The notes beneath the pieces are model-generated. The model did not search any database and was not told where the DNA came from. It saw nothing but the letters and a program-made list of their open reading frames with translations. From a bacterium (GTDB lineage Bacteria > Verrucomicrobiota > Verrucomicrobiia > Limisphaerales > RI-55): a stretch of DNA of 64,000 bases. The stretch's first letter is position 1, and the number at the start of each line of letters is the position of its first letter. The position numbers and the translations under genes were made by a program. Of the stretch, positions 3,782 through 43,026 are shown one piece after another. The DNA is taken from assembly GCA_031362805.1 (NCBI GenBank), contig JANLTG010000126.1, positions 66,426-130,425 of the forward strand, given 5' to 3'.

Positions 3782-3867
3782 GCGGCCAAGCTAGCGAAGG
3801 CAGCGGTGGTGTCGAGCGTGGGTAACGGCGCTTGAGAATCAAGCGCACCCGTCGGCCGGCACTTCGG

Positions 3868-4581
3868 CTAGATATCCGAATAGATGCGCGTGAGCGGTCG
3901 GCTCTGAATCACCCGGGCCAATGGAGTTCGGGCATCGGGCTTCAACGATTCCGCAAGGGCACCCGCCTTGCCCGCGCCGGAGGCCATCACCCAGACTTCG
4001 CGCGCGGCGGCAATCACTTCGTAGCCAAGGGTGATGCGCCGCGGCGGCGGTTTGGCGGCGGTGACGGGCCGGTAAATGTCAGGCAGCCCGCGCTCGGATT
4101 CCGGTTCCTCCGGAAAAAGAGAGGCAACGTGCGCGTCCTCACCCATGCCGAGGAATATCAAGTCGAACACGGGGAGTCCGGCGGCGTTCTTTTCAGAGCA
4201 GCGCTGAAGTTCCGCACTCACCCTGGCGGCCGTGCTCCGGCCGTCATCGTCGCAGCAGAGCGGGTGAAGTTGCGACGCCGCCACGCCGAGCGGGTCGCAT
4301 AAATTCTCTTTCGCCAGCTTGAAGTTGCTGTCGGCGCTGTCAGCGGGGACGCAGCGTTCATCGCCCCAAAAGAATTCCACGTGGCGAAACGATACGCCGG
4401 CCGACCGCGCACGCCGGGCCGCGACCGCAAGGAACGTCCCGGCAATTCTGCCGCCGGAAAGCGCGACAAGCTGGCGGCCGCCGGCTTGGGCAACGCCGCG
4501 AACCGTTTCCAGCCAGTCGGCGGCGACGCGGTCTGCGAGTTCCGTCGGTGAAGCGACGCGCTGTAGATCGAAGTTTGGCAC
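3868..4581 (-). CDS. pgl: 6-phosphogluconolactonase
   Basis: ALSGG, FWGDERCVP, SN, LGMGEDAHVASLFP, RITL motifs; directly downstream of zwf. Confidence 0.92.
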   Translation of the reverse strand: MPNFDLQRVASPTELADRVAADWLETVRGVAQAGGRQLVALSGGRIAGTFLAVAARRARSAGVSFRHVEFFWGDERCVPADSADSNFKLAKENLCDPLGVAASQLHPLCCDDDGRSTAARVSAELQRCSEKNAAGLPVFDLIFLGMGEDAHVASLFPEEPESERGLPDIYRPVTAAKPPPRRITLGYEVIAAAREVWVMASGAGKAGALAESLKPDARTPLARVIQSRPLTRIYSDI

Positions 4582-24411: not shown

Positions 24412-25020
24412 CTATCTGGCCAGGAAGCGCTGCCAGTCGGCAGCGGTATCCACATCTGCCAGGGTCCGTAGAAGTTCAACCGTTAGGCCGGCCGCGCGCG
24501 CGCGTTCCAAGGTCACGGCCAGCACCTGATCGGTACCCCACGGGATGCTGCGGAATAGTTCCGCGTGGCACCTCCGCATTCCAATCAACCAATAGCCGCC
24601 ATCTTCCGCCGGGCCCAGCACGAGGTCGTTCGATGACAACGCCTCACGCGCCTCGCGAAGATCCGCCAGCGTCAGATCGGGGCAATCCGTTCCGATGATC
24701 AGCGTCCGGGCAAAACCAGCCGCCCCACTTTGCAGGACCGCTCGTTCGAGACGCGCCCCGAGATCGCCCTCCCCTTGCGCGGCCAACTCCCAGCTCGCCG
24801 CCGCCCACGGCGACACCTCGGCCGCTGCGTCGTCGGGTGTGTGCCGAAGCTCGACTGCCATGTCGGCCAGCCGGAGGCCGGGCAGCAGGCGATCCAACAA
24901 TTGCCGGTAAGCATCGCAGGCCGCGTCGACGCCGAGCTCTGCCGCCAGCCGGGTTTTGACCGAACCCGGACGCGGGGCGCGCATGAAGATGATGAGTCGT
25001 GTGGGACGCAACGACTTCAC
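24412..25020 (-). CDS. DUF2064 / TIGR04282 CofC-like glycosyltransferase
   Basis: P.PG.VKTRL, QGEGDLGARL, IGTDCP, LGPAEDGGYWLIG, DVDT. Confidence 0.85.
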   Translation of the reverse strand: MKSLRPTRLIIFMRAPRPGSVKTRLAAELGVDAACDAYRQLLDRLLPGLRLADMAVELRHTPDDAAAEVSPWAAASWELAAQGEGDLGARLERAVLQSGAAGFARTLIIGTDCPDLTLADLREAREALSSNDLVLGPAEDGGYWLIGMRRCHAELFRSIPWGTDQVLAVTLERARAAGLTVELLRTLADVDTAADWQRFLAR

Positions 25021-25254
25021 TTAGAGCGGGCGCCGGGAGTGTTCAATCCTCAAGTTGCGCCGCCACCGGGCGCGCGATTGCGGGGCCTGATTGCATGCTG
25101 GATTGCGATGTGCTTTCCTCCCAGTCGTCCACCGACGGCCAGTGCGTGGCGGTCGTTGCTTAAGTGCTGGTTGCCCCAGCTAATCGCGGTGGAGCGGCGG
25201 TCGCGCAGTAGCGCGGTGGTTCCGCAAACTCCCAGCATGAAAGATTGGCCCCTG

Positions 25255-28200: not shown

Positions 28201-31200
28201 TACCCGACGTTGAACGCGGTCAACTCGATCGGCAATTACGGCGGCTCGCTGGCGAATTCCTCGGATCATCTCGCGCTCGCTGCCTGGGACACAGTGGTCA
28301 CCACCAACCTCGATCTCTCGCTCTCGACTAACACCATCTACATCACCGTCGATAAGGCTCGCTACCTCGACGGCGGGCGCTGGGGCAAGTGGACCGACGG
28401 CGACGGCAGCAGCCTCGAATTGCGCGACCCCCACAGCGACAATCGCCGGCCTTCGAACTGGGCTTCCAGCATCGAGACTGCGAAAGCGCCCTGGGTAAAC
28501 ATTGAGCACACCGGCGTGCTGGATCTCGGCCAGGTCGGTGGCGGCCGCACGATCGATGAAGTGCAAGTCATGCTGCTCGGCGCCGGCGAATGCCTCGTGG
28601 ACGACATCGAGGTGTTCCGTCAGGGCGGGCCCAATCTGGTGCCAGACGGCGGCTTCAGCGTCGGCATCGCCGGCTGGTCCATCCAGGGCAATCACGTGGC
28701 GTCGGGATGGAATGCCGCGGAAGGCTTTACCGCAAATGGCAGCCTGCACCTTCGCGCCAGTGGCGGCGGCGACAACGGCGCCAACCGGCTCAAGGTCAAG
28801 CTGACCGAATCGCCAGCCCCTGGTGAGATCGTCACGATCCGCGCCAAAGCCCGCTGGCTGGCGGGCAGCACCAACCTGTTGCTGCGACTGTACGGCAATT
28901 ATCTCGAAGCCTCCGGCACGCTTGCCGCGTCGCCAACCCCGGGCACTCCCGGCCAGCAAAACAGCGTCTTCGTCGCCAACACCGGGCCGGCGATCTGGGA
29001 CGTGACGCACGATCCCATTCTGCCCACGGCCAATCAACCGGTGGTTGTCACTGCCCGCGCGGCTGACCCGGACGGCCTCAATCTTCTCAACCTCCGCTAC
29101 CGCGTTGATCCGGCAGCCACGCAGACCGCAGTGGCCATGCTCGATAACGGAACGGGCGGCGACGCCATCGCTGGGGACGGCGTGTTCAGCGCCACCATTC
29201 CCGGCCAGGCCGCAAATATACTGGTGGCGTTCCACGTCGAGGCCACCGATTCGTTGGCGACCGTTTCCCGTTTCCCAGCTGATGCGCCCGTTCATGAAGC
29301 GTTGGTTCGCTTCGGGGAGTCCGATCCGTTCGGCGCGTTCAGCACCTATCGTTTTTGGATGACCGCCGCCAACATCGCGACGTGGCAAGGCCGTGAGAAC
29401 CTGAGCAACGAGCGGCTCGACATGACCTTCGTCGCCGGCCAATCGCGGGTGATCTACAACGGCGGCATGCGCTATCGCGGCAGCCCGTTTCTCCGACCGG
29501 GCTACAGCGGACCGACCGCCAGCCTGTGCGCTTATGTTTTCAAAGTGCCCGCCGACGATCCGTACATCGGCTTCGAGGAGTTTAACCTCGACTGGCTTGA
29601 GCAACCCGGCCGCGACCCGACGCTGCAACGCGAGAAGATGTCGTTCTGGATCGCGCAACAGATGGGCGTGCCGTTCAGCCATCAACGCTACGTCTACATC
29701 TTCGTGAACGGCGTGCGGCGCGGCCTCGTCTACACCGATTCGCAGGAACCCACTTCGGGCGACTACGTGACGGCGTGGTTCGATGGCGAGGACGACGGCG
29801 AGATCTACAAGATCGACGACTGGTTCGAGTTTAACGACACCCCCAACCGGGAGTTCAACGTGGACGGCACGCTCCAGAACTTCACGACGGGCAACGGCAC
29901 GAAGAAACAGGCGCGCTATCGCTGGAGCTGGGAAAAGAAATCCAACGGCGGGCTCAACGACGACTACCGCTCGCTCTTCAGTCTCGTCGATGCGCTGAAC
30001 GAACCCGACCCGGTCGCCCACACGCAATCGGTCAGTTCGTTGATCGATCTCGAACAATGGCTCCGCGTGTTTTTTGTCCGCCACATGGTCGGCGACTGGG
30101 ACGGCTACAGCTACAGCCGGGGCAAGAACATGACGACCTACCGCGTGCCCGATGGGCTGTTCCACATGCTCATGTGGGACATGGATTTTTCGCTCGGCGG
30201 CGGCAGCCACGCGCCCAACACGAGTATGTATGTGGCGGGTGACCCCACCATGAGCCGTTTCCTGAATCATCCGCCGTTCAATCGGCTCTACCTGCAGATC
30301 ATGAAGGAAGGCGCGAATGGCCCGCTGCAAGCCGCGAAGATCGAGCCGGTGATGGACGACATCTATCGCGCCTTCCAGGAAAGCTTCGTCGGCGTGGCTA
30401 ATCCGTCACCGATCAAGACCTGGGTGCAGCAACGACGCGACTTCATCGCCGCCACCGCGGCCAACGCCGAAGCGAACTTCGCGATCACCAGCAACAACGG
30501 CAATAATTTCAGCGTCGGCCAGAACCTGTTGCAACTCGACGGCACCGCGCCCCTCGACGTCCGCACGATCACGGTCAACGGCAACGCCATCCCGGTTACG
30601 TGGATCACGGTCAATCAATGGCGCGCGGGGATTCCGTTGGCGGCGGGCGCCAACAACCTCACGATCGGCGGGCTGGATCGCAATGGCCTGCCCGTCGGCG
30701 GCGCAAGCGATACCATCACGGTGACCTTCACCGGCACGGCCGATTCCGCTGTGGGAAATTTGATCATCAGCGAGATTATGTACAATCCCGCCACGCCGGC
30801 GTCTTCGTTCGTCGAACTGCTCAACCGCTCGACCACCACCGCGTTCAATCTGACCGGCCACCGCATGAACGGCGTCGACTTTGTGTTTCCGTCGGGAACG
30901 GTGATCGCCCCGGGCGCACACCTGTTGCTGGCGAAAAACCTCACCGTGTTCTCCACAACCTACGGCTACGATATTCCCGTGGCGGGAGTTTATGGCGGCG
31001 AGTTGGACAACGGCGGCGAGACGATCAGCCTCGTCAGGACTAACGCGAACCCCGTGCTGGATCTGGTGATCGACACCGCCCGCTATGACAACCAATTGCC
31101 GTGGCCGCTGGCGGCGAATGGGCTGGGTTCCTCACTCCAATTGCGCGACCTCGCACGCGACAACAACCGCATCGGCAACTGGGCCGCTGCGCCGGTCATT

Positions 31201-32907
31201 CCGGAGACGAACGACGTCGAGGTCGTGAGCTTCACCAATGTGTGGCGCTACAACCAGGCCGGGGTCGATCTCGGCACCACGTGGAAGGACACCGGCTTCA
31301 ATGACACCGCCTGGCCCGCCGGCCGCGCGTTGCTCTACAACGAAACATCGCCCATGCCGGTGCCCACGAACACGCTGCTGGCGCTTGGACCAAACACGTT
31401 CTATTTCCGCACCAAGTTTACCAACGACCTGCCTGCGAACACCGCGAAGTCGCTGGTATTGCGGGCGGTCATCGACGACGGCGTCGTGATCTACCTGAAC
31501 GGCAGCGAGCTTCACCGGCTGCGCCTGACCGGCAATCCGGTGCTGTTCACCGAGCCGGCGTCGCCGTCCGTGACGGAGGCCATCATCGAAGGTGCGTTCG
31601 AGTTTCCAGCAACCTTGTTGTTGCCGGGCGAGAACGTCCTTGCCGCCGAAGTCCACCAGCCCGGCGCGCCAAGTTCCGACATCGTCTTCGGGCTCGAGCT
31701 AAAAATCCGCGAAGTGCAATCCGGCCCCTACACCCCTGGCGCCGCCAACTACACCACGCTGACGTTGCCGGAGTTCCCGTTGGTATGGATCAACGAAGTC
31801 CAACCGAGCAACACCACCGGCCCGCTCGATAACGCCGGCGAGCGCGAGCCCTGGCTGGAACTCTACAACTCGGGTGCCTCCGTTGTGGATCTCGCCGGTC
31901 TGTTTCTCTCCGACGATTATCTGAACCTGACCAAGTGGACTTTCCCCGCCGGTGCCTCGATCAATCCCGGACAGTGGAAAATGGTCTGGCTCGACGGCGA
32001 ACCGGGCGAAACGTCCGGGCAAACTTTTCACACCGGCTTCCGACTTGCCGCGAGCGTGTCCGGTGGCCTTGCGCTCACGCGGGTTGTCGGCGGCCGCAAC
32101 ATCGTGCTCGACTACCTCGACTTCTACAACGTGACGGCGAACCGCGCTTACGGCTTGTTCCCCGACGGCGCACAATATCAGGGCACCGGGCTTTTCAACG
32201 CAACGCCCGGCTCCGCCAACAACGCGACCTTCCCGTTGGTCAACGTCGTCATCAACGAGTGGATGGCCGATAACAAACGACTGCCCAACCCAATCGGTGG
32301 AACGTTCGACGACTGGTTCGAGCTCTACAACGCCGGCGCGTCGATCGTGAATCTTTCGGGCTATTTCCTGACCGACAATCTCGCTGACACCGACAAATGG
32401 GCGATTCCGGCGGGCACGACGATCCCGGCCGGTGGCTACTTGCTGGTCTGGGCCGACGGCAAGGACACGCTGGACACCGCGCCGCTGCACACCGCCTTCA
32501 GCCTCAACGCCAACGGCGAGGCGATCGGCCTCTTCGCCCCGGACGGCAGCGAAGTGGACTCCGTGGTTTTTGGAGCGCAAGCCGAAGACATCTCGCAGGG
32601 CAATTTTCCCAACGGCCCGACCGGCGGAGTTTCGTTCCTGAGCAAGGCCACGCCCGCCGCCGCCAATCTGCATCAACCGCCCGTGTTCGTTCCCGACAGC
32701 GTCGTGCGCCAGCCCAACGGCTGGACCACCGTCGAATGGAATGCCGAGGTGAACCGCACCTACAAGGTTCGTTACAAGGACGACCTCAACGCCACGAGTT
32801 GGCTGCTGCTCGGCCAGGTGGTGGCGACGAGCCCGCTCAAGTCGGTGACGGACACCACGTCCGCCGGCGTGCCGAAGCGCTTTTACCTGATCGAACTGGT
32901 GCCGTAA
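25255..32907 (+). CDS. Giant secreted multidomain protein (PA14, Ig-like, several lamin-tail domains, CotH kinase-like domain)
   Basis: Signal peptide; PA14 (SDD, KEGGGGDNL); repeated INE...DF/YVELYN lamin-tail motifs; CotH-like RGS, LQREK, DWDGY, WDMD. Start at 25237 or 25255. Confidence 0.85.
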   Translation: MNAFNASLPLRYARLAHLLLALTAIGTPCLVRGQNVVGIYREVFTGIGGSAVSDLTNSVYFPNGATSSNLLTTAFETPVDFADGYGQRLRAVLVAPFTGSYTFYICSDDQSFLYLSQTENPAGKTLVAAENQWNGSRQWTTAERRTNATALFPAMDPNLPANRSDYAYGTINLTAGQRYFIEALQKEGGGGDNLSLAWMRPDGAGGFVFEGPVPASHFRATGVPFPLPPTINQQPANITVVEREPASFSVVASSLAPMNYQWQLNGGNIGGANAATYNIQAVLLAQHNQRYRCIVFNDLGTNTTAEAVLNVTQDNQPPAILRVANEGLNRIVVFFSEPVESTSAFAILNYALWVNGTPQPVTLFGPPTFVDSQQRIVSIQSAPLTSGGAYRLEVNNVRDTAASPNTIPNFSTYVFVASPYTPWSVGDATQSGTVTPVSGGYNLSVTSSGISGTADQFLFNYQLRTGDFDLSTRVESVGNSDAWARGGLMARGTLSTNSLFAGVFGTPSISGIVFASRATDGATATDTGTFPVNYPYTWVRLKRVGNAFTGYASYDGTTWYQIGNATFTAPATLYVGMAASSRNPAASTLAAFREVANVVGGTISTVPPRLEPPGPSTRRSGLTISEFMYHPADRLDLRDTEFVEVFNSQPFEEDLSGYRLSGDIAYTFPNGTIIPAGGYLVVAHVPADVTAVYGLVGVLGPYTSKLPNDQGSVRLRHRNGEVLIDINYRSELPWPVAADGAGPSLVLRRPSYGETQFEAWDASTLKGGSPGRMDGVLVDAWRNVVINEWLAHTDLPQVDFVELYNHSNQAINIGGAYLTDDAATNKFRIPANTPPLAARGFIHFTQATLGFALSSGGESLYLISPDNQRVIDAVRFDGQENGLSTGRSGDGANEFSELQAPTPGTANTAPLIRNVVINEIMFHSLTDEALEYVELHNRATQPVNLSGWRFVDGIDFEFPAGSAIPAGGYLTVGRDILALRTNYPTLNAVNSIGNYGGSLANSSDHLALAAWDTVVTTNLDLSLSTNTIYITVDKARYLDGGRWGKWTDGDGSSLELRDPHSDNRRPSNWASSIETAKAPWVNIEHTGVLDLGQVGGGRTIDEVQVMLLGAGECLVDDIEVFRQGGPNLVPDGGFSVGIAGWSIQGNHVASGWNAAEGFTANGSLHLRASGGGDNGANRLKVKLTESPAPGEIVTIRAKARWLAGSTNLLLRLYGNYLEASGTLAASPTPGTPGQQNSVFVANTGPAIWDVTHDPILPTANQPVVVTARAADPDGLNLLNLRYRVDPAATQTAVAMLDNGTGGDAIAGDGVFSATIPGQAANILVAFHVEATDSLATVSRFPADAPVHEALVRFGESDPFGAFSTYRFWMTAANIATWQGRENLSNERLDMTFVAGQSRVIYNGGMRYRGSPFLRPGYSGPTASLCAYVFKVPADDPYIGFEEFNLDWLEQPGRDPTLQREKMSFWIAQQMGVPFSHQRYVYIFVNGVRRGLVYTDSQEPTSGDYVTAWFDGEDDGEIYKIDDWFEFNDTPNREFNVDGTLQNFTTGNGTKKQARYRWSWEKKSNGGLNDDYRSLFSLVDALNEPDPVAHTQSVSSLIDLEQWLRVFFVRHMVGDWDGYSYSRGKNMTTYRVPDGLFHMLMWDMDFSLGGGSHAPNTSMYVAGDPTMSRFLNHPPFNRLYLQIMKEGANGPLQAAKIEPVMDDIYRAFQESFVGVANPSPIKTWVQQRRDFIAATAANAEANFAITSNNGNNFSVGQNLLQLDGTAPLDVRTITVNGNAIPVTWITVNQWRAGIPLAAGANNLTIGGLDRNGLPVGGASDTITVTFTGTADSAVGNLIISEIMYNPATPASSFVELLNRSTTTAFNLTGHRMNGVDFVFPSGTVIAPGAHLLLAKNLTVFSTTYGYDIPVAGVYGGELDNGGETISLVRTNANPVLDLVIDTARYDNQLPWPLAANGLGSSLQLRDLARDNNRIGNWAAAPVIPETNDVEVVSFTNVWRYNQAGVDLGTTWKDTGFNDTAWPAGRALLYNETSPMPVPTNTLLALGPNTFYFRTKFTNDLPANTAKSLVLRAVIDDGVVIYLNGSELHRLRLTGNPVLFTEPASPSVTEAIIEGAFEFPATLLLPGENVLAAEVHQPGAPSSDIVFGLELKIREVQSGPYTPGAANYTTLTLPEFPLVWINEVQPSNTTGPLDNAGEREPWLELYNSGASVVDLAGLFLSDDYLNLTKWTFPAGASINPGQWKMVWLDGEPGETSGQTFHTGFRLAASVSGGLALTRVVGGRNIVLDYLDFYNVTANRAYGLFPDGAQYQGTGLFNATPGSANNATFPLVNVVINEWMADNKRLPNPIGGTFDDWFELYNAGASIVNLSGYFLTDNLADTDKWAIPAGTTIPAGGYLLVWADGKDTLDTAPLHTAFSLNANGEAIGLFAPDGSEVDSVVFGAQAEDISQGNFPNGPTGGVSFLSKATPAAANLHQPPVFVPDSVVRQPNGWTTVEWNAEVNRTYKVRYKDDLNATSWLLLGQVVATSPLKSVTDTTSAGVPKRFYLIELVP

Positions 32908-33057: not shown

Positions 33058-33627
33058 ATGAACGCGGAGAACTCGCAGCCCACACAACTTGTCCCGGCCG
33101 AGCACGTCGAGCAACTGATCCATCTGGTGCGCGGCGAGAAGGTGCTGCTGGATGCCGACCTGGCGAGGCTTTATGGCGTTACTACTGGGAATTTGAACAA
33201 AGCCGCCAGACGAAACCACGACAGATTCCCTCCGGACTTCATGTTCCAGCTTTCGGATGAAGAGGCCGGAGCTTTGATATTCCAATCTGGAAGATCAAAG
33301 CGACGCGGTGGCAGCCGTCACAATCCCTACGCCTTCACCGAGCAGGGCGTGGCGATGCTCTCCAGCGTATTGCGCAGCGACCGGGCCGTGCAGGTGAACA
33401 TCGCCATTATGCGGGCGTTCGTGAGTCTACGCCGGATCCTCGCCTCCAACGAAACCCTCGCCCGCAAGCTCGCCGAAATGGAGCGCCAGCTTGAAGGTCA
33501 CGATCAAGCCATCAAGTCCCTCTTCGCTGCGATTCGCGAATTGATGACGCCGCCCACCACGCCCGACCGCGAGATCGGCTTCCACGTCAAAGAGGACAAG
33601 GCCGCCTATCGGACGAAACGGAAGTGA
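33058..33627 (+). CDS. ORF6N-domain DNA-binding protein
   Basis: RGEKVLLDADLARLYGVTT, RFPPDFMFQL, PYAFTEQGVAMLSSVLRS, IGF. Confidence 0.92.
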   Translation: MNAENSQPTQLVPAEHVEQLIHLVRGEKVLLDADLARLYGVTTGNLNKAARRNHDRFPPDFMFQLSDEEAGALIFQSGRSKRRGGSRHNPYAFTEQGVAMLSSVLRSDRAVQVNIAIMRAFVSLRRILASNETLARKLAEMERQLEGHDQAIKSLFAAIRELMTPPTTPDREIGFHVKEDKAAYRTKRK

Positions 33628-34119: not shown

Positions 34120-34194
34120 TACGGGCACGACCTGCTCAGCCAGCGGACGGCGACGGGCACGGTGCATTTCTACGGGTAAGACGGGCAGGGAAGC
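34120..34194 (+). pseudogene. Decayed RHS-core remnant, in frame with the downstream RHS ORF
   Basis: Translates YGHDLLSQRTATGTVHFYG*DGQGS, with TAA at 34177-34179 where Tyr is expected. Confidence 0.75.
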
Positions 34195-35181
34195 GTGCGG
34201 ACGCTGTTCGATTCGACCGGCGCGGTGACGGACACGTATGTGTACGACGCGTGGGGCAAACTGGTGACGACGGAAAGCACGACGCCCACGGCCAACCACT
34301 ACCGCTACACCGGCGAGCAATGGGACAACGACCTGGGGATGTATTACCTGCGGGCGCGGTATTACCGGGCGGAGAACGGCCGGTTCTGGACGATGGATAG
34401 CTTCGAGGGCAGCCAGAGCGATCCGTTGAGCCTGCACAAATACCTCTATGCGCATGCCAACCCGGTGAACGGAGTCGATCCGACCGGGCATGAGTTCAAC
34501 TTAGTGAGTACGCTTACAACCGCAGGGAAGATTGGTTACCTCAGCGGACGAACCGCGTTCACGGTTCTAAACGCTTATAGCCGTGCCTCCTCGACGCTTG
34601 GTGCGATTCAAGATCTGGCCATGGTGACCGAACTGGTCGCCGATGGGGTTGACGATGAGGATTCAGAAATTTTGGCTGAACTTATATTCGGTTTTGCGCA
34701 GGAGCGGGTAGTCTCGGCCGGCATTGCAATCGTTGTGGGTGTAGGTGGTAAGGTGATCGCCACCACCGCTTCACGGTTGAGCGGAACGGTGTCTCGTGAA
34801 GCCATTAGGCGAACCCGTGACTGGTATCGGAGCCACAAGGCCAATTGGGCAGGCAAGACCAGAAGAACTAGCGCGGGCGACGTGCCATACGATCAACACG
34901 GTTGGCCGGATTTCTCACAATACTTGCGGCAGGGCGGAATCAACACCGTGAAGATACGGCTCGCGGGCAGCAGGGCTAAGGACTTTGAGCTGGCAGACCA
35001 GGCGGCAAACGTTAGCGAGGCATGGAGGAAGGCAAATGGATACGTTTGGCATCATCATCAGAAACTTGGTACCATGCAGCTCGTGAAGAAGAGCGCTCAC
35101 AATGTTGCGGATGGCGGTGCGCCGCACGCAGGTGGCGTTGCGATCTTCAAGCGACTATACGGTTATGGCTACGACGATTAA
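34195..35181 (+). CDS. Orphan RHS repeat-associated core with a C-terminal WHH-type HNH nuclease toxin
   Basis: YDAWG, YTGEQWD, YYLRARYY, GRFWTMD, YLYAHANPVNGVDPTG; tip contains GWPDF, WHHH, MQLV, H, PHAGG. Confidence 0.88.
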   Translation: MRTLFDSTGAVTDTYVYDAWGKLVTTESTTPTANHYRYTGEQWDNDLGMYYLRARYYRAENGRFWTMDSFEGSQSDPLSLHKYLYAHANPVNGVDPTGHEFNLVSTLTTAGKIGYLSGRTAFTVLNAYSRASSTLGAIQDLAMVTELVADGVDDEDSEILAELIFGFAQERVVSAGIAIVVGVGGKVIATTASRLSGTVSREAIRRTRDWYRSHKANWAGKTRRTSAGDVPYDQHGWPDFSQYLRQGGINTVKIRLAGSRAKDFELADQAANVSEAWRKANGYVWHHHQKLGTMQLVKKSAHNVADGGAPHAGGVAIFKRLYGYGYDD

Positions 35182-35632: not shown

Positions 35633-35802
35633 CTCAAGGCCGTCCACAAGGCCACTCACCCAGCGGAACAGGGTTGGAACCCTGACCCGCTCGCCGCTCA
35701 CGGAACGATCGCGATCACTGCTCCGGAGATTGCCGCGCTGCGGGGTGGACTGGCCATGGACCTCCGGGCCTTTGCCCGGTTGCTAAATCTTTCGGTGCGG
35801 GC
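35633..35802 (+). pseudogene. Truncated paralogous copy of the HTH gene at 39164-39469, inverted orientation
   Basis: Translates LKAVHKATHPAEQGWNPDPLAAHG...MDLRAFARLLNL; 26 mismatches in 170 bp against the reverse complement of 39285-39454 (manual count); no start codon. Confidence 0.85.
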
Positions 35803-35957
35803 GATCATCTACGTCTCCACTTCCACCCGCCGATCCTCCGTCAACAGGGGCGTGGTCTGACGCTTACGGTTGCGTCGCCGCCGCCGGAGTAGAACCATCA
35901 GGGTTGGTATTCATAGGGGCAGACATTGTGGAGCGCTCGTGAGCCCCGTGTCTGCCC

Positions 35958-36500
35958 TCATGTTTTCCTTACATTCAGCAAGGCATCGAGACTCCCCTGG
36001 AACAGTTCACTCGGTCGCGGCGGCAAACGCTGTCCGGCACCAATCGTTCCAACGCTGTTCACTGTCTCGCGTCCGATTGATTTTAGCGAGAGAACGAGAC
36101 CGCTGGATGGTGAACGCACCAATTCAAAATGCTTGAACCAAGCGTTGCGCTCCCAAAGCTCGTCGATGTCTAAGAACTCAGTTGTGACGACGTGCGGATC
36201 GTAAAGCCACTGGCCCCACAAAACGAGAAGCTCGTTCTGCCCGAGTTCAAAAAACAGGATCGGCCCTTCGTCGTTACACTCCTCGCCGACTGCGAATCGG
36301 TTTCCTTCGACAGTTAGAACCTCGACGGTTCCAGCGTGATGGTCAGATTCAAGGTGGTGGCGGCCTTCCACTACAGTCTTGTCACGAACGACCACCTGAA
36401 TGATACGACCCAACCAGCGAGGCTCTGGATTCAAATGCAGTAACACCGTTTTCCTCTCCGCCTCAGTCATCGTTCTTGTTGTTCGCGAGAGCCCCATCAC
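35958..36500 (-). CDS. Hypothetical protein, possible immunity or accessory protein
   Basis: 180-aa lower-GC ORF at the end of the toxin operon. Confidence 0.55.
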   Translation of the reverse strand: MMGLSRTTRTMTEAERKTVLLHLNPEPRWLGRIIQVVVRDKTVVEGRHHLESDHHAGTVEVLTVEGNRFAVGEECNDEGPILFFELGQNELLVLWGQWLYDPHVVTTEFLDIDELWERNAWFKHFELVRSPSSGLVLSLKSIGRETVNSVGTIGAGQRLPPRPSELFQGSLDALLNVRKT

Positions 36501-36504
36501 ACAC

Positions 36505-36729
36505 CTACTTTCTACCGTTCTTAAATGGGTTTACGAAAGCATGGATGATCTCAATGAGCCCTGCCACAGCGAAGATAAGTGGAGGCACTCGGCGGCGCGT
36601 TGTCTGGTAAATAAGCGCAGCCAGGGCAAGCGAAACAATAGCGAGACAGAGATGTGTCCAGAAGTGGGTGCGGCGTGCTCGTTCCACCCGATCGGGCTGA
36701 GGTGTATGTTGGTCTTCTCCAGTTTTCAT
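36505..36729 (-). CDS. Small two-TM membrane protein, candidate immunity protein
   Basis: Starts 10 nt after the toxin stop; two hydrophobic segments. Confidence 0.55.
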   Translation of the reverse strand: MKTGEDQHTPQPDRVERARRTHFWTHLCLAIVSLALAALIYQTTRRRVPPLIFAVAGLIEIIHAFVNPFKNGRK

Positions 36730-36739
36730 TTCACTGTGG

Positions 36740-37492
36740 CTATGGGTTTAGCGGACCGGGACCAAGCGTTGGCAGGTCGTCCATTTCGCCCTCGGTGAGT
36801 TCCCGCAGATCCTCAAATCCTCGATCATTCTCCCAATCGGAAGGCGTCAACTCAAACTGCTCAATCACAGGTTCAGCGTTGTTGCTATCGTTGCCAATAG
36901 TTGCCGCCTCGTGGATGGCCAAGGGTATCGCAATCCTAATTCCCCACTCGACGGTGTAGGCGATAACCATGCGGTAGCCACCCCAGTTGACCGCGAAGCC
37001 AATCCACTGGTTCAGCCCCAAGTTGCCCGACAAAACATGCGGCATTTCTAACAGATTGAAACCTGCGTTGCGTAAGCCTTGCGGAACACGTGACCACTTC
37101 TGCGCAATGAGCCAATGATGCAGACTCCTGCCATTGGCAGGCCCGTTTGCTTTCCAATACGCACGGCTGACAGCTTGAAACCGCTGATTGTTCCAGAAGA
37201 ACTGTCTGGCCTTGGTTAATGCTCGTCCGGCTCGAACGCCAACCTGGGTCGCTATTCGCAGTCCAGTCGCGATGCTGCTGTTCAGGCTCGTGAGGTTGAA
37301 CTCGTGCCCCGACGGGTCCACGCCGTTCACAGGGTCAGCGTGCGCATAGAGGTATATGCGGGAATGCGGTGCGGTGGCGGCCTCACCCCACGGCCGCGCA
37401 GAGAGAGCGAATGCCGAAGGGACGAATGAAAGCCCGCCGAGGATCAGGCTGAGAAAGAACACCATGCTTCGGGCGAGCGCGACTTGCCGCAT
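36740..37492 (-). CDS. Signal-peptide mini-RHS toxin with an HNH-like (LHHW...NAGFNL) tip
   Basis: Signal peptide MRQVALARSMVFFLSLILGGLSFVPSAFA, then APHSRIYLYAHADPVNGVDPSGHE, then a variable tip. Confidence 0.7.
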   Translation of the reverse strand: MRQVALARSMVFFLSLILGGLSFVPSAFALSARPWGEAATAPHSRIYLYAHADPVNGVDPSGHEFNLTSLNSSIATGLRIATQVGVRAGRALTKARQFFWNNQRFQAVSRAYWKANGPANGRSLHHWLIAQKWSRVPQGLRNAGFNLLEMPHVLSGNLGLNQWIGFAVNWGGYRMVIAYTVEWGIRIAIPLAIHEAATIGNDSNNAEPVIEQFELTPSDWENDRGFEDLRELTEGEMDDLPTLGPGPLNP

Positions 37493-37706
37493 GACATGTT
37501 CATGCTGTCGAACAGTGGCACCGGCGACAAGTTTTCCGCGTCGAATTGCCGGCCTCACAATGCGGTTCAGTCGACATTGAGCTGAGTGGCCCGCAGCGGA
37601 CGGAGGGAACGCGATGTCATTTTGCGGGCGAAAACCAGCGACTTATTTGCGGGTCAAAATCACCTACCCCGAGGTGGGTCCAGTTCATATCAGGTTGGGC
37701 GGAATT

Positions 37707-38486
37707 TCAACCAGTCAATTGTTCCAAATCTAGTCCTTCGAGCAGTGCCGGAAAGAGATCGAACATGCGTTGGCAGTGGTCTGTTATCATCGTGCAGACG
37801 GCTTCAACGTTTTCCATAGCAATGTTGTCCCAACCGGATCCGATTCCCAACTCGTTTCCATAATTTAATCCCATGCTAAGGCTGTTGAATGGTAGAATTG
37901 CTGGCTCTTGCTTAGTGATCCATTTGCCATTCCAAACATCATGCTGATAGCTTATCTCTGGCTCCCACCTACCAAAATCAAAATACGTCTTGACGATCCA
38001 TCCACGACATTTCATCTGATATTGTAAGCCAGCCTTGTCAGCGAAGATATCTGGAGGTATGCATTGATCTCCAAAGACCATCAAGAAGTGGTCCTTTACT
38101 GCCTTTTTTAGCTGTCGGCGCGTCGCTAGTATTGGTTTGCTGGCCGCGTTCGCTGGCATGAACATTCCTTCCCAAGTTCCAGGGCTCGTTCTGAGGCGGA
38201 AGCCTTCCTCTCGCCGCATTAACACACCCGCCTCTTCTGAGGTCTCTAAACTCAATGCCTTAGCAGCAATCGGATGCCTGGCAACGAGCAGCGCTTGGGC
38301 GAGCACTGCTCGTGAATTCGCAGCCAAGCTTGCAATAAACTTGCATCTTCTGGATGGCCATTCTTTGCAAAACTGAAAACTCGGAAACGACTCCTCTGTC
38401 TCTAGCTTCTGAGCGGCCGCGGCCCAGTGGTAGAGCCGAATGCAAAACTCAGTTTGAGCTTCAACGTAGGTCATGAATGGACGCAT
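37707..38486 (-). CDS. Candidate immunity protein for the PD-(D/E)xK toxin
   Basis: 259-aa low-GC ORF starting 9 nt after the toxin stop. Confidence 0.6.
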   Translation of the reverse strand: MRPFMTYVEAQTEFCIRLYHWAAAAQKLETEESFPSFQFCKEWPSRRCKFIASLAANSRAVLAQALLVARHPIAAKALSLETSEEAGVLMRREEGFRLRTSPGTWEGMFMPANAASKPILATRRQLKKAVKDHFLMVFGDQCIPPDIFADKAGLQYQMKCRGWIVKTYFDFGRWEPEISYQHDVWNGKWITKQEPAILPFNSLSMGLNYGNELGIGSGWDNIAMENVEAVCTMITDHCQRMFDLFPALLEGLDLEQLTG

Positions 38487-38495
38487 TTGTCAGGT

Positions 38496-39167
38496 TCAAA
38501 ACTTTCCAATCATAGAGAGAATGGTGGCTATTCCCACATGCTGCTGAAGGCGAGCTTGGTCGGACACACGAGCACTTCTCACTCCCTTTTTAGCAATGTC
38601 TTGGATAGTTTGGATTTCGTAGAAAATCATCCCTCCGACAGGAGGACTCACGAACGCAATTCCCAAACTAAGGTTCACGACCCTTGGTGGATCCCACGTA
38701 CTCCCAGGGTGCCATCCCCCGCTTGGATCCAACTCATTAAAGGCCCATATATAGCCCCACAACTGAAAGATGCCCGCAAGTCCATAAGCCGACATGGGTT
38801 TGATTTCATATATTTCTTTTGTGTATCCATCAACAAGATCGGGTAACAAACTTTCAATTCGTCTTGGTAGCGGAATCCTCAATCGATCAGCGATCGTCGA
38901 GATTGCTCTTGAAGAGAATCGAAGCTGACCTGGGGGTGGGGGATTGCCGACGAACATTTCGCCTAGTTTCTTGTGCAGCTCCTTTCCTAGCTTGGTCTTC
39001 AAAGTTTCATGGCCGCTGGGATCCGCGCCATTCACCGGGTCGGCATGCGCATAGAGGTATATGCGGGAATGCGGTGCTCCCGAGTAGAAAGCCGACGAGC
39101 ACACCGCAGGATGGAACGTGGCTACGGCGATCAGGAGGGCCAGCAGGAAGTGGAGGAGACGGTTCAC
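38496..39167 (-). CDS. Signal-peptide mini-RHS toxin with a PD-(D/E)xK restriction-endonuclease-fold tip
   Basis: GTG start overlapping the HTH gene TGA (GTGA); signal peptide MNRLLHFLLALLIAVATFHPAVCSSA; APHSRIYLYAHADPVNGADPSGHE; tip G..LH...PDLVD....EIYEIKP...QL..Y. Confidence 0.75.
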   Translation of the reverse strand: MNRLLHFLLALLIAVATFHPAVCSSAFYSGAPHSRIYLYAHADPVNGADPSGHETLKTKLGKELHKKLGEMFVGNPPPPGQLRFSSRAISTIADRLRIPLPRRIESLLPDLVDGYTKEIYEIKPMSAYGLAGIFQLWGYIWAFNELDPSGGWHPGSTWDPPRVVNLSLGIAFVSPPVGGMIFYEIQTIQDIAKKGVRSARVSDQARLQQHVGIATILSMIGKF

Positions 39168-39469
39168 GATGACAGAAGTGACGCTTGAATCGCTCGCCCC
39201 AGACTGGGGTTGCTCCGCAGGATTTGCAACAATCGCAGCAGCGGTCCGCCGGCCTGTGAGCGGCCTGATTCCAGGCGGGTGAGTGCCCGCTCCGGGAGAT
39301 TCAGCAACCGGGCAAAGGCCCGGAGATCCATTCCCAGTCCACCCCGCAGCACGGCGATCTCCGGAGCTGTGATGGTGGACATTCCGTGGGAGGCGAGTTG
39401 GTCGGGGTTCCAACCCTGTTCAGCCGGGTGGGTGGCCCGGTGAACGGCCTTGAGCTTCTCGATGCTCAC
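39164..39469 (-). CDS. XRE/HigA-like helix-turn-helix protein
   Basis: TAPEIAVLRGGLGMDLRAFARLLNL....L..LESGR...GP...LLQIL..NP. Confidence 0.75.
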   Translation of the reverse strand: MSIEKLKAVHRATHPAEQGWNPDQLASHGMSTITAPEIAVLRGGLGMDLRAFARLLNLPERALTRLESGRSQAGGPLLRLLQILRSNPSLGRAIQASLLSS

Positions 39470-39509
39470 GTGGGCACCGAGCTAGATCCGAGCAAATCCC
39501 GCCATCTCG

Positions 39510-42185
39510 TTACGGTGCCGGCGGCAACCCATCGGCCGGCGCCGAAGGTTCTTCATCCACCTTCTCCTCTGCGATCACGGGGGCAATGGCCTGAAGCTTG
39601 TCGCCGGCGTCGAGGTTGACGAGCTTCACGCCCATCGTGTTGCGACCGGCTTCACGGATGTCGGCCACGCCGGTGCGCACCATCTGGCCGCCCGTCGTGA
39701 TCAACATGATCTCGTCCTCGTTATGCACGGTCAACGCACCCACGACACTGCCGGTCTTGTCGGTCGTTTTCATGGTGATGATGCCTTTGCCGCCGCGTGA
39801 TTGAACGCGGTACTCGCTGAAGTCCGTCCGCTTGCCAATGCCGTTCTCACCGGCCACCAGCAACGTCGCGCCTTGAATCACGATCGCCGCAGCCACCACC
39901 GCGTCATCCGCCTCGAGACTGATGCCGCGCACACCGGTGGCGTTGCGGCCCATCGAGCGGACATCGGATTCGCTGAACCGGATGCTCATGCCGGTGCGGG
40001 TGATGAGCACCACGTCGTCACCGGCGTCCTTCACGGCTTCGCCTTCCAGCACGGCGCCGCGTGTCAGCTTCACCTCGATCAACGTGTCGCCCGGCTCGAT
40101 GCTGATGGCGATGATGCCGCCCTTGCGCACATTGCCGAACTCGTTCAACGACGTCTTCTTCACCGTGCCCTGGCGCGTGGCGAAGAACAGCTCACCGGAC
40201 TGCTGCCAGGTGGTGTCCTCGCCCGCGTCGTTCTGGCTGGCGCCAATCCGGATCAGGGCGGCGATCTTTTCGTCGGTCCGCAACTCGAGGAGGTTCGCGA
40301 TGCTGCGGCCTTTCGAGGTGCGCGCGGCGTCCGGCACTTCGTGGACGCGCTCGACGTACGCGCGACCGGTGTTCGTGAAGAACATCAGGTAATCGTGCGT
40401 GCTGGCCGTGAACAGGTGCTCGATGAAGTCCGCGTCCTGCCCTTCGACGACGGAGTCTTCCCGCGTGCCCATGCCGATGACGCCTTTGCCGCCACGCTTC
40501 TGCGCGCGATACTCGCTGGCGTTGGTGCGCTTGATCAAACCGGCGTGTGAGAGGGTGATGATCACGCCTTCGTTGGCGATCAGATCCTCGATCGCGATCT
40601 CGCCCTCGTCGGGCACCAGTTCGGTCGAGCGCGGCGAGGCGTGCTTGGCCTGGATGGCGCGCAGCTCGGCCTTGATGATCTCGAGCACGCGCGATTCGCG
40701 GGCCAGAATATCGAGCAGATCCTTGATCTTCGCGATCAACTCGCCGTACTCGGCGCGCACCTTGTCGATCTCCAGGCCGGTCAATTGATATAACCGCAGC
40801 TCAAGGATCGAGTTCGCCTGCGCTTCGCTGAACTCGTATCGGCCGTTGGTCAGCCGCGCCTCGCTCCGAATTAAGATGCCCAGCGTCTCGACCTGTTCGC
40901 GGCTGAACTCGTAGGCCAGCAACTTGATTCGCGCCTCGTCGCGATTCGCCGACTTGCGGATGATCTGGATGAACTCGTCGAGGTTCGACAGCGCGATGAT
41001 GTAGCCCTCGAGCACCTCGGCGCGCTCCTCGGCTTTGCGCAGCTCGAAGCGCGTGCGCCGCAACACGACTTCGCGGCGGTGCTCGATGTAGCAATTGATC
41101 AGCTCCTTCAGGTTGAGGACTTTCGGCCGGCCATGATCGATCGCCAGGACGTTCGACGCGAACGTCGTCTCCAGCTGGCTGTGTTTGTAGAGATTGTTGA
41201 TGACCACCTGCGCGATCGCGTCGCGCTTGAGCTCGATGACAATGCGGGTGTTTTCGTCCGACTCGTTCCGCATCGCCGAGATGTCGGTGATGATCTTCTC
41301 GTTCACCAATTCAGCGATGCGTTCCTCGAGTGCGGCGCGATTCACATTGTAAGGAATCTGCGTGATCACGAGCTGCTCGCGCCCGCCCTTCATCGGCTCC
41401 ACACTAATCCGGCCGCGTACTTTCACGCTGCCGCGGCCGGTGTGGAAATACTGCTTGATGCCTTCGATGCCGCAAACCATGCCGCCCGTGGGGAAATCCG
41501 GCCCCTTGATGTGCGTCATCAGTTCAAGAATAGAGATGGCCGGATTGTCGATCTGCGCGCAGACGCCGTTGATCACCTCGCCCAGATTGTGCGGCGGAAT
41601 GTTCGTCGCCATGCCAACCGCGATGCCCGTGCCACCGTTGACCAGCAGGTTGGGAATCGCCGCCGGGAACACGGTCGGCTCCGTCATGCGCTCGTCGTAG
41701 TTCGGCACGAAATCGACGGTGTCCCGGTCCATGTCCTGCATCATGGCGGCGCCGAGATGCGTCAGCCGGGCCTCGGTATAACGCATGGCCGCCGGCGGGT
41801 CGTTTTCGATGGAGCCGAAGTTGCCCTTGCCGTCGACGAGCTTCTCGCGCATCGCCCAGGACTGGGCCATGTGTACCAGCGTGGGATAAATCACCGCTTC
41901 ACCGTGCGGGTGATAGTTACCGCTAGTGTCACCGCAGATCTTGGCGCACTTGTAGGGCTTGCGACCCGGAAACAGCGAGAGCTCGTGCATCGCGTAGAGA
42001 ATGCGCCGCTGCGAGGGCTTCAATCCGTCACGCACGTCGGGCAGCGCGCGCGAAATGATGACCGACATCGAGTAGTCGAGGAACGAGTTCTTGATCTCGT
42101 CGGCGACGTTGATCTTCTGCACCTTTTCGTTGGGCGCGTAGATCGAACCGGTGTTCGGTGCGGGCGGAATGGTATCGTCTGGCAT
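39510..42185 (-). CDS. gyrA: DNA gyrase subunit A
   Basis: [27 protein letters not shown], GyrA-box QKRGGKG, beta-pinwheel repeats. Confidence 0.97.
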
Positions 42186-42206: not shown

Positions 42207-42644
42207 TCACTGCGGCGATTCTATGGGCGGAAATACGGGCAGGCCCAGGCGGGTGGCTGCCTCCCGCATCCGTTTGTCGGTGGTTAACAGCGGAAACTGC
42301 TGGCAGAGATCAGCACTGGCGACATGAATCGCGTCCAGCGTGCGCACCGGAATGTCCGGGTGACATTGCTTGAGCACGCCGTTCGCCTTGTTTAATGCCA
42401 CCCGGTTCATCGGGATCAGATGAATCGTGCCGCGGCTGACGAGCGCCTGCAGCCGCTCCAGCGCGCGCTCGCGCAAGTCGCGGGGAATGACGCCATTTCG
42501 CTCCTTGGCGAGCAACGCGGCAAACACTTCGGTCAGTGCCAGTTCCGAAGTGTGCAGCACCTGCCCGGCGCAGTACTGGGAAAACATCACGCTGTCGGGT
42601 TCAGGCGACAGCAGCTTCACGAGGATGCAGGAATCCAGATACAT
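42207..42644 (-). CDS. vapC: PIN-domain (VapC) toxin
   Basis: YLDSCILVK, TE, RTLDAIHVASA, TTDKR. Confidence 0.88.
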   Translation of the reverse strand: MYLDSCILVKLLSPEPDSVMFSQYCAGQVLHTSELALTEVFAALLAKERNGVIPRDLRERALERLQALVSRGTIHLIPMNRVALNKANGVLKQCHPDIPVRTLDAIHVASADLCQQFPLLTTDKRMREAATRLGLPVFPPIESPQ

Positions 42645-42648
42645 CGCG

Positions 42649-42990
42649 TCACCACCCTCGCCCGTCCCGATCAGCACGGATCAGCTCTTCGGCGAACGGC
42701 CCCGCCGTCTGCGTAGGCACCGCTTGGAGAAGGTCCCACGCCGGCTCGAAACCGATCTGCTCCGCAGACGCGGCGACCGGCCGCAACACGGCCTTCGGTT
42801 TCCCATCCGAGGTGATGGTGATCGTCGTGCCCGCTGCGACCAACTCCAACAGCGCCGAAAGCTTTGCCTTGGCCGCCCGCACAGGAATTGTCATTCCGTG
42901 CCCCGGCAGCGCCACGGCTTCCTTGAGCATCATTGCCCCGGAGTTCGGCTGGGGGTAAACCACCCCCGCTTTCTTTGTTTTCTTCTTCAC
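42649..42990 (-). CDS. Phd/YefM-family antitoxin
   Basis: VRAAKAKLSALLELVAAG..ITITSDGKPKAVL. Start GTG 42990 or ATG 42894. Confidence 0.85.
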   Translation of the reverse strand: MKKKTKKAGVVYPQPNSGAMMLKEAVALPGHGMTIPVRAAKAKLSALLELVAAGTTITITSDGKPKAVLRPVAASAEQIGFEPAWDLLQAVPTQTAGPFAEELIRADRDGRGW

Positions 42991-42996
42991 GGCTTC

Positions 42997-43026
42997 AATG
43001 TGGTCACGTGTGACCACATTCGTCAA
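42997..43026 (-). promoter_or_regulatory. TA promoter/operator palindrome
   Basis: Perfect 11-bp inverted repeat AATGTGGTCAC-GT-GTGACCACATT adjacent to a minus-strand TTGACG -35. Confidence 0.75.

Follow-up and report, generated by a model that had tools for sequence, protein, structure and literature searches.

Can the toxic tip of an RHS protein be put to use with no cage around it? RHS toxins are known as cage-and-release devices, in which the toxin is enclosed by a shell and set free by an internal aspartyl protease. The question is raised by two tandem genes, here called mini-1 and mini-2, on the minus strand of a stretch of 64,000 nucleotides (nt), which as a whole we call the window, from a bacterium of the verrucomicrobial order Limisphaerales (GenBank assembly GCA_031362805.1, contig JANLTG010000126.1). 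The window is C73:66426-130425 of this draft genome, designated G000 (5.63 Mb, 224 contigs, 61.5% guanine plus cytosine, GC); C-numbers denote its contigs or, after another G label, those of a relative. The two genes encode proteins of ~220-250 amino acids (aa), compared with 1,400-4,800 aa in canonical RHS toxins, and in both a hydrophobic leader is followed by the very end of the RHS core and by a C-terminal tip (Table 1). On sequence grounds we take them to descend from RHS orphan cassettes and to be self-sufficient and Sec-exported, as part of a lineage of putative toxins of ~220-320 aa. The combined reading, to which we assign a probability of roughly 0.6, holds that they are short, shell-less, Sec-exported toxins of RHS descent, whose tail serves as an exchange junction and in which autoproteolysis has been lost; the narrower claim, that they are expressed and exported toxins rather than silent cassettes, seems considerably safer. 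The architecture itself is real and recurrent.

The minis do not qualify as RHS proteins by the features that define the family. None of the 69 matches to the YD repeat (PF05593) in G000 falls inside either mini, and Pfam finds no such repeat in either protein, while the RHS core model TIGR03696 (76 positions, cut-off 32.5 bits) is matched at positions 57-76 and 58-76 only, with 15.7 and 13.4 bits. A census with this model across five genomes met the 57-76 type in G000 only. The first aspartate motif, GRFxxxD/DxxxG, is absent from both proteins, as the earlier note on this DNA had stated, and the second motif, DPSG, alone is kept. In Rhs1, two DPLGL motifs lie 17 residues apart and are followed by the cleavage site, within a plug of ~95 residues embedded in the barrel, and the exchange D1338N abolished C-terminal cleavage; the protease of the solved RHS structures is this internal plug, which works in cis within the cage (PMC8636562). 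Since the minis keep the second DPxG motif alone and have no plug or cage, the retained tail of ~17-19 residues is probably not an active protease. A contrast with ordinary orphan modules had also been drawn in the note, and it can be seen within the window itself, in which a plus-strand orphan RHS fragment (34120-35181) begins within the core, is interrupted by an in-frame stop close to the 5′ end and carries no leader.

Each mini has a start of its own. That of mini-1 is a GTG overlapping the stop codon of an upstream helix-turn-helix (HTH) open reading frame (ORF) in the sequence GTGA, an overlap that recurs in the metagenome contig L128, and that of mini-2 is an ATG giving MRQVALARS, an N-terminus shared by the homologues P0026 and P0027. 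The hydrophobic cores of both leaders are clearly above chance: taking the best 12-residue Kyte-Doolittle window in the first 35 aa, mini-1 reaches 2.89 and mini-2 2.48, when 0.6% of random stop-free 35-aa windows from the six frames of G000 (n = 36,366) reach 2.5 and 0.23% reach 2.8; of 3,501 long ORFs, 10.6% reach 2.5 at the N-terminus. Among relatives, hydrophobicity is conserved as a property of the leader while the sequence diverges, and in mini-2 and many of these relatives the helix is followed by typical small-residue sites (AFA/LS, SALA, VQA/R). A lipoprotein reading of mini-1 was rejected because the cysteine of its leader is a glycine in P0005 and P0006. The leaders, which had been called different in the two genes, do differ in sequence, yet they can be aligned, with 51% identity over leader plus linker. 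The linker, APHSRIYLYAHADPVNG(A/V)DPSGHE, is present and near-identical in both proteins, and the tips behind it are unrelated, mini-1 matching mini-2 over 15% of the query, that is, over the linker alone; on both points the earlier note was right.

The layout is not a one-off deletion product, since it recurs in metagenome proteins with diverse tips. Word-indexed searches over 5.8 billion proteins gave five matches among 518 candidates for mini-1, namely mini-1 itself, P0003 and P0004, in which the same tip (tip-1) stands behind a signal peptide and ~40 core residues, and P0005 and P0006, in which the leader and linker of mini-1 (84-85% identity over 24-25% of mini-1) precede other tips. For mini-2 there were 25 matches among 756 candidates, 18 of them with its tip (tip-2) behind various N-termini, including ordinary core ends in P0008, P0009 and P0014. 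The mini-2 leader is joined to other tips in P0024, P0026 and P0027, the mini-1 leader is followed by PT-HINT and an AHH nuclease in P0028, and the same tail stands behind other leaders in P0029 and P0030. A constant N-terminus is thus found with alternative toxin domains, three other tips for each of the two leaders, and the same tip is found with other delivery parts, tip-1 in P0003, P0004 and the relative G016, and tip-2 in the 18 proteins and at the end of a full-length RHS protein in the relative G207. Leaders and tips reassort at the tail.

A profile built from ten leader-plus-linker sequences and run exhaustively over 1.84 billion cluster representatives gave 672 matches at E <= 1e-3 and 16 at E <= 1e-10. 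Among the best 150 of the 672, sorted by regular expressions and a hydrophobicity cut-off, a coarse heuristic, 64 are signal-peptide-led with no YD shell: 25 with a short spacer and the tail, the type of the minis, 20 with a conserved RPExRVG..YDFASG spacer before the tail, and 19 with the last ~40 core residues, GRF included. The remainder are core ends with GRF and no signal peptide (39), short fragments (29), long or YD-rich proteins (15) and sequences with no motif (3). The leaders recur in dozens of clusters at 50% identity, starting at Met, Val or Leu. Among relatives, signal-peptide-led minis occupy the orphan position after a full-length rhs gene, as three consecutive genes in G161 and as a single gene in G256. 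G000 also holds three short ORFs of the ~40-residue type (C22:21232-23118, two in tandem, and C149:66206-67120), each with a clear signal peptide (...VQA or ...AHA), the sequence FYNPSTGRW...DPxG with both aspartate motifs, and a different tip. The minis are, as far as sequence comparison tells, one end of a graded series, in which a signal peptide is joined to ~70, ~40 or ~17 core residues or to another spacer. The distinct class proposed in the note, defined by the last ~17 core residues, therefore survives in its recurrent layout with diverse tips, and loses its sharp boundary. Clusters of 135-203 aa are automatically named "RHS repeat-associated core domain-containing protein", and the short forms are on record in databases but unremarked.

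Neither tip can be named with assurance. Pfam and NCBIfam gave nothing above cut-off for the minis, for the immunity candidates described below or for a 74-aa ORF that follows mini-2, and in these comparisons no described family covers tip-2 or either immunity protein. Tip-1 carries the motif PDLVD...EIYEIKP, which by eye has the D...ExK pattern, and is probably a PD-(D/E)xK nuclease. Against Tox-REase-9 (PF15650, cut-off 27.3 bits) mini-1 itself has no match, and its homologues P0004 and P0003 score 20.3 and 13.5 bits. Atlas leads for tip-1 are Tox-REase-9 and VRR_NUC (0.83-0.89), the Tox-REase-9 lead at 0.89 being a cluster in which 12% of the members carry the family; in longer proteins tip-1 was found in none of 1952 candidates, itself weak evidence. 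Tip-2 is a domain of ~110 residues with the invariant pattern YW..G.A.G..LHHW...RNAGFNL..P...N in 19 aligned members, none of which matches any Pfam family, the HNH clan included, and it occurs in 2 of 401 genomes of the order. Atlas leads for it are AHH, GHH, GH-E and SHH of the HNH/EndoVII clan (0.75-0.86), and it is possibly an HNH/EndoVII-like nuclease. When its alignment was compared by hhalign with the AHH-bearing P0028 and with the WHH orphan of the window, the core end aligned and nothing else did. The two labels given in the earlier note thus stand as unconfirmed leads, PD-(D/E)xK with a by-eye motif and sub-threshold Tox-REase-9 scores behind it, and HNH with an Atlas lead and an invariant LHHW...N...N pattern recognized by eye.

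Candidate immunity genes accompany both toxins. In G207, tip-2 ends a full-length YD-repeat RHS protein, and behind it come first a small two-helix ORF and next a 189-aa ORF, the latter 32% identical (E = 5e-25) to the 180-aa ORF found in the same position after mini-2. The two-helix ORF of G207 (97 aa) and the 74-aa ORF next to mini-2 share position and no sequence similarity, the latter having weak membrane-family matches only. Tip-2 and the 180-aa ORF move as a pair. When tip-2 (residues 63-215) was modeled in complex with the 180-aa protein, the score was 0.82, and the best of three controls scored 0.00; that mark is reached by 58 of 80 solved complexes and by 2 of 110 mismatched pairs, counts that hold only roughly because our own alignment was used for the model. 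The runs share at least 83% of contacts with a partner predicted local distance difference test score (pLDDT) of at least 82, and the predicted interface covers toxin residues 104-126, the LHHW motif included. The model supports a predicted binding of tip-2 to the 180-aa protein, and the conserved 180-aa ORF is more likely the immunity partner than the 74-aa ORF. For mini-1, the 259-aa ORF shows 23% identity over 239 aa (pairwise E = 3e-6) with the ORF behind the tip-1 homologue of G016. A candidate immunity gene travels downstream of the toxin in both cases, syntenic for tip-2 and weakly conserved for tip-1. The earlier placing of such a gene within about 10 nt of each toxin thus fits mini-1, with the 259-aa ORF 9 nt after it, and is the less likely placing for mini-2, whose partner is likelier the more distant 180-aa ORF. 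Neither the 259-aa nor the 180-aa protein has a signal peptide, and the toxins therefore probably act in the cytoplasm.

At the DNA level, a 32-nt island within the linker is identical in both minis and the DNA upstream of it is unrelated, while the 14 codons past it hold nine synonymous differences and one non-synonymous. The island contains a 6-6-6 dyad, CGCATA-TACCTC-TATGCG, of which both arms are changed and the dyad kept in L128 (TGCATA...TATGCA); it is not kept in G190, G151 or the metagenome contig L127. No repeated intergenic motif was found besides this coding island, and its likeness to the XerC half-site of Escherichia coli dif was accorded no weight, the overlap following from the Y-A-H codons. 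In L127, two tandem tail-plus-tip cassettes (1981-2182 and 3832-4033) lie 1851 nt apart as a 202-nt direct repeat (92%) that covers the tail and ~35 upstream codons, with no start codon and no in-frame signal peptide.

The 101-aa ORF directly upstream of mini-1 begins with ~17 aa that correspond to the C-terminal end of a XerC/D-type tyrosine recombinase (SIEKLKAVHRATHPAE; residues 2-21 match positions 313-332 of the NCBIfam XerC model), and the rest is an MqsA/XRE-like HTH, sub-threshold for Pfam HTH_3/MqsA and scoring 27.2 bits with the NCBIfam MqsA family. Its homologue in G016 is a protein of 394 aa, XerC-like at 365.4 bits (cut-off 371) with a C-terminal MqsA-like HTH, and directly behind it come a leaderless tail, the tip-1 homologue and the immunity homologue. 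In L128, a truncated recombinase-HTH gene overlaps the leader-type toxin P0055, as at mini-1, and in G190 and G151 truncated copies are followed by a single TGA and then the tail. In the latter two loci, L136 (G190:C59, ~9572-9575) and L137 (G151:C75, ~2489-2493), recombinase-HTH and tail plus tip lie in one frame with the TGA as sole separator, 2 codons before IYLYC, an arrangement that could reflect read-through, the junction of a recent insertion or a silent cassette. G000 holds the module a third time (C81:1115-1491, L134), as an HTH remnant with stop codons and a 77-aa ORF, of which the first ~35 aa are the mini-1 leader, followed by a slightly decayed island and then by no similarity and no tip. 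The array in the window is moreover bracketed by a 175-nt inverted repeat (84%; 35633-35807 on the plus and 39280-39454 on the minus strand), both copies being 5′ parts of the recombinase-tail/HTH module, and the 3.5-kb segment between them, with both minis and their immunity genes, could invert by recombination. The plus-strand copy runs into a remnant of the mini-1 leader (35815-35837; 23 nt, 74%) and has no cassette. A phylum-level search with the HTH profile returned generic stand-alone HTH ORFs only (positions ~18-94), with no recombinase tail. In two genera and one metagenome contig, a XerC-like-HTH gene accompanies the cassette family.

The strongest alternative drawn from this arrangement, though an unlikely one, is that leader and island form a fixed acceptor, behind which the XerC-like recombinase-HTH protein inserts or swaps cassettes of tail, tip and immunity gene in frame with the signal peptide, an integron or shufflon inside a coding sequence, the tail being conserved as a DNA site as much as a peptide. 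The gene or its remnant stands directly upstream of the tail, or of leader plus tail, at six loci (mini-1, C81, G016, G190, G151 and L128), but it is a remnant at mini-1, C81 and L128, truncated in G190 and G151 and full-length only in G016, where the protein comes close to the XerC cut-off; mini-2 has neither recombinase nor HTH upstream. The conservation of the island between diverged flanks, the C81 copy that stops at the island and the co-varying dyad arms of L128 speak for such a site, yet the dyad is lost in G190, G151 and L127, and part of the conservation is common to all rhs genes because TAC-CTC-TAT is the commonest YLY codon series of RHS tails in general. The decayed plus-strand copy, which keeps a leader remnant and no cassette, is counted in favor of the acceptor, as are the inverted HTH copies around the array and the low GC of the toxin island (0.50-0.58 against 0.62), which recalls the rAID-1 arrays of Bacteroidales, likewise GC-skewed with a 5′ XerD-like recombinase (bioRxiv 10.1101/471110). 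Against this, no recombination product or inversion variant was observed, the association is narrow in its spread, and the phylum-level search had a generic outcome.

Rather improbable, in our view, is the proposal that the tail functions as a tag for processing or recognition, cleaved or docked in trans, for example by a full-length RHS protein supplying the missing aspartate. In its favor, Y37, L38, Y39, A40, P44, D49, P50, S51 and G52 are invariant in ten sequences, the 9:1 ratio of synonymous to non-synonymous differences between the minis speaks of constraint on the peptide, and the kept motif holds the aspartate whose exchange in Rhs1 (D1338N) abolished C-terminal cleavage (PMC8636562); but the protease described there acts in cis within the cage, and purifying selection on the tail may date from full-length genes or reflect repeated gene conversion. 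G000 does encode four full-length RHS proteins, all with signal-peptide-like N-termini, but among them the 4835-aa protein of C210 alone has a similar tail (LHRYLYANGNPVMNVDPQG), the other three differing, and a stricter tail pattern finds the three C73 copies in G000 and no others. The claim of the earlier note that the tail is such a tag, in need of a partner in trans, thus found no support, and the DNA pattern of the tail and the recombinase link speak rather for a junction of cassette exchange. By these comparisons, the most likely role of the tail is that of a conserved junction for the exchange of tips, through recombination, with other rhs genes and cassettes.

A further alternative concerns the leader, which might be an uncleaved signal anchor that keeps the toxin attached to the inner membrane on its periplasmic side, or to vesicles, for delivery by contact or vesicle. 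Mini-1 and its relatives begin with MN..H.. and ~15 hydrophobic residues, with a weak n-region and no clear AxA site, and the AlphaFold models show a single N-terminal helix (residues 2-18 or 2-19); the small-residue sites of mini-2 and many relatives argue for cleavage, and we consider an anchor quite unlikely.

Expression was approached by sequence signals and by RNA libraries. A promoter scan of 35800-39600 found none of the sigma-70-like kind, with 2.1 expected, and terminator-like sites numbered 4 against 4.2 expected, which makes that scan uninformative. One freshwater-sediment metatranscriptome run contained 5% of the sampled words, and two RNA-library pieces were placed on the locus, one of 63 nt at 37615-37677 and a contig of 252 nt with 9 mismatches (~96% identical) at 39079-39330, spanning the 3′ end of the HTH gene and the mini-1 leader; coming from a relative rather than this strain, and with DNA carry-over possible, the contig is at most a hint at co-transcription of the two genes in that relative. 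That the minis are silent orphan cassettes, untranslated stores of RHS tips with accidental reading frames for leaders, is very improbable, for although leaderless copies exist in G016, G190, G151 and L127, promoter-like sites are missing and the 252-nt contig is the one piece of RNA support for the mini-1 leader, two adjacent accidental leaders are improbable when 0.6% of random windows reach 2.5, the leaders recur in dozens of clusters with their hydrophobicity kept despite divergence, the starts are well placed, with the GTGA overlap at mini-1 and L128, and intact toxin-immunity pairs are retained.

Our preferred explanation, that of exported cage-less toxins, would run as follows. A cassette of an RHS tip, comprising core-end tail, toxin and immunity gene, would have been joined to a start codon and a Sec-type signal peptide of its own, and the product could therefore be made and exported without a YD-repeat cage. 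We infer that Sec would take the toxin across the inner membrane, a route for which the signal-peptide-like N-termini of all four full-length RHS proteins of G000 also speak, that signal peptidase would cut off ~23-29 residues, and that autoproteolysis has been lost. The toxin would then leave the cell by some outer-membrane route and act in the cytoplasm of competitors, with tip-1 and tip-2 as candidate nucleases whose toxicity the cytoplasmic 259-aa and 180-aa proteins, respectively, would neutralize in the producer. The tail would serve as the exchange junction, and the decayed XerC-like recombinase-HTH gene, translationally coupled to mini-1, may regulate or mobilize the array.

Several observations weigh against this explanation. 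Sec in a diderm cell reaches the periplasm only, and we see neither an outer-membrane route nor a domain for target entry, a difficulty for nucleases whose site of action is the cytoplasm. Signal peptides and export are proposed from composition and conservation; mini-1 has a weakly charged n-region (MNR..H) and lacks a clean AxA site, the N-termini of the metagenome proteins are predictions of gene callers, and the class counts come from the coarse sorting described above. No tip reaches a Pfam cut-off, and AlphaFold performed poorly, with a mean pLDDT of 53.4 for mini-2 (19 sequences), whose model is all-helical, and 33.8 for mini-1 (3 sequences). The exact type of the two minis is rare, as follows from three scans: the whole leader profile matched G000 alone among the 401 genomes of the order, 59 of which match the tail or more of it; among 78 examined GTDB loci with the tail motif, found by a generic pattern that returned mostly full-length RHS proteins, only L018 and L029 are signal-peptide-led, both with a ~40-residue core end, and L020 has a short tail without a leader; and a degenerate DNA pattern for IYLYAH..P.N gave two metagenome loci of the Joint Genome Institute (JGI) only. 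Tail plus tip follows the recombinase-HTH gene directly, with no leader and no start, in G016, G190 and G151, and the two L127 cassettes lack an in-frame signal peptide, so that leaderless and presumably silent copies of the same cassettes exist. To these may be added the empty promoter scan, and the invariance of the tail across diverged leaders, which could mean a function of the peptide itself.

Table 1. Features of the toxin/immunity island and its borders (positions of the window)
Feature	Position	Strand	Remarks
ORF6N-domain protein	33058-33627	+	105 bits; at edge of low-GC island
Ordinary orphan RHS fragment	34120-35181	+	Last YD repeats, full core end with GRFWTMD, WHH/colicin-DNase tip
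Candidate immunity ORF for WHH tip, 176 aa	35102-35632	+	By position alone; no family match (Pfam, NCBIfam)
Decayed second recombinase-tail/HTH module and remnant of leader start	35633-35837	+	Inverted repeat with 39280-39454
Best tip-2 immunity candidate, 180 aa	35958-36500	-	Begins 4 nt after 74-aa ORF
Two-hydrophobic-helix ORF, 74 aa	36505-36729	-	Starts 10 nt past mini-2 stop
mini-2, 250 aa	36740-37492	-	Predicted leader ~37406-37492 (...VPSAFA/LS), spacer, linker 37301-37372, tip-2, acidic tail
32-nt identical island, copy in mini-2	37341-37372		Encodes APHSRIYLYA(H)
Candidate tip-1 immunity protein, 259 aa	37707-38486	-	Starts 9 nt past mini-1 stop
mini-1, 223 aa	38496-39167	-	Predicted leader ~39099-39167, spacer, linker 39006-39077, tip-1
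32-nt identical island, copy in mini-1	39046-39077		Encodes APHSRIYLYA(H)
HTH ORF, 101 aa	39164-39469	-	XerC/D-type tail and MqsA/XRE-like HTH; directly upstream of mini-1
gyrA	39510-42185	-	Other border of low-GC stretch

The genes lie in a low-GC stretch of 5.5 kb between the ORF6N gene and gyrA (0.50-0.58 against ~0.62 for the genome), within which a 214-nt gap separates the 259-aa ORF from mini-2. ORF6N genes are often borne by phages or mobile elements. The tip of the orphan RHS fragment scores 53.2 bits with WHH and 49.9 bits with Colicin-DNase in Pfam. A 2725-aa ORF (24730-32907, plus strand) that ends ~1.2 kb before the toxin island is no RHS protein but a CotH/lamin-tail protein, in which Pfam finds lamin-tail domains (six), a CotH kinase-like domain, PA14 and Ig. 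Beyond gyrA (42207-43026, minus strand), two overlapping small ORFs of 156 and 125 aa resemble by eye a PIN/VapC-type toxin with its antitoxin. The closest named loci with similar RHS tails belong to metagenome-assembled genomes of Limisphaerales and other Verrucomicrobiota, which is no more than a pointer to taxonomy.

Four known systems invite comparison. With canonical RHS/YD-repeat toxins, including the Sec-dependent WapA, the minis share the PxxxxDPxG junction, a variable toxin and an adjacent immunity gene, and the two are further tied by the full-length RHS protein of G207 that ends in tip-2 and by the signal-peptide-like N-termini of the full-length RHS proteins of G000; unlike them, the minis have no YD repeats, cage, N-terminal plug or first DPxG/GRFxxxD motif, and retain ~17-19 of the 76 core positions. 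Orphan rhs-CT/immunity modules, in the C-terminal displacement model (PMC2935791, PMC3150448), likewise consist of a cassette from the conserved core end, and relatives of the minis stand in arrays after full-length rhs genes with exchange at the core-end junction; classical orphans, however, start inside the core with no start codon or export signal, whereas each mini brings with it a start codon and a leader resembling a signal peptide. MafB and the type II secretion system class ("T2SS-class") of toxins resemble the minis in having a signal peptide, a short constant region, a variable toxin and downstream immunity, and in carrying several cassettes in one island (PMC4287609; PMC3482391), but the constant region of the minis is neither DUF1020 nor another defined domain; it is a relic of ~17 residues of the RHS plug. 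The rAID-1 arrays have skewed GC, a 5′ XerD-like recombinase and integron-like features, and the mini array is similar in its 5′ XerC/D-like recombinase, co-directional genes, lower GC and toxin/immunity content (bioRxiv 10.1101/471110); rAID-1 arrays as described there hold orphan immunity genes, however, whereas the mini array holds whole toxin genes with leaders, its recombinase has a C-terminal HTH and is mostly decayed, and no integron-like intergenic repeats were found in it. In the published full-text literature searched, no description of cage-less, signal-peptide-led RHS-tail proteins was found. The first 300,000 characters of Zhang et al. 2012 (PMC3482391) contain none of the terms "RHS core", "DPxG", "single RHS" or "lack the RHS", and its additional files may list such proteins.

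If the minis are what we take them to be, cage-less proteins with the RHS junction and a signal peptide would allow toxic tips to be deployed by a much simpler route than encapsulation and release, and "orphan" cassettes need not be silent stores. The layout also yields a rule for discovery, namely to look for short proteins whose leader is hydrophobic and whose first ~60-110 residues contain YLYAHxxPVNxxDPSG, which may lead to new toxin and immunity domains in bacteria of the Planctomycetes-Verrucomicrobia-Chlamydiae (PVC) type and in other environmental bacteria. Should the recombinase link prove true, site-specific capture of cassettes within a coding sequence would be a means of re-arming a secreted toxin.

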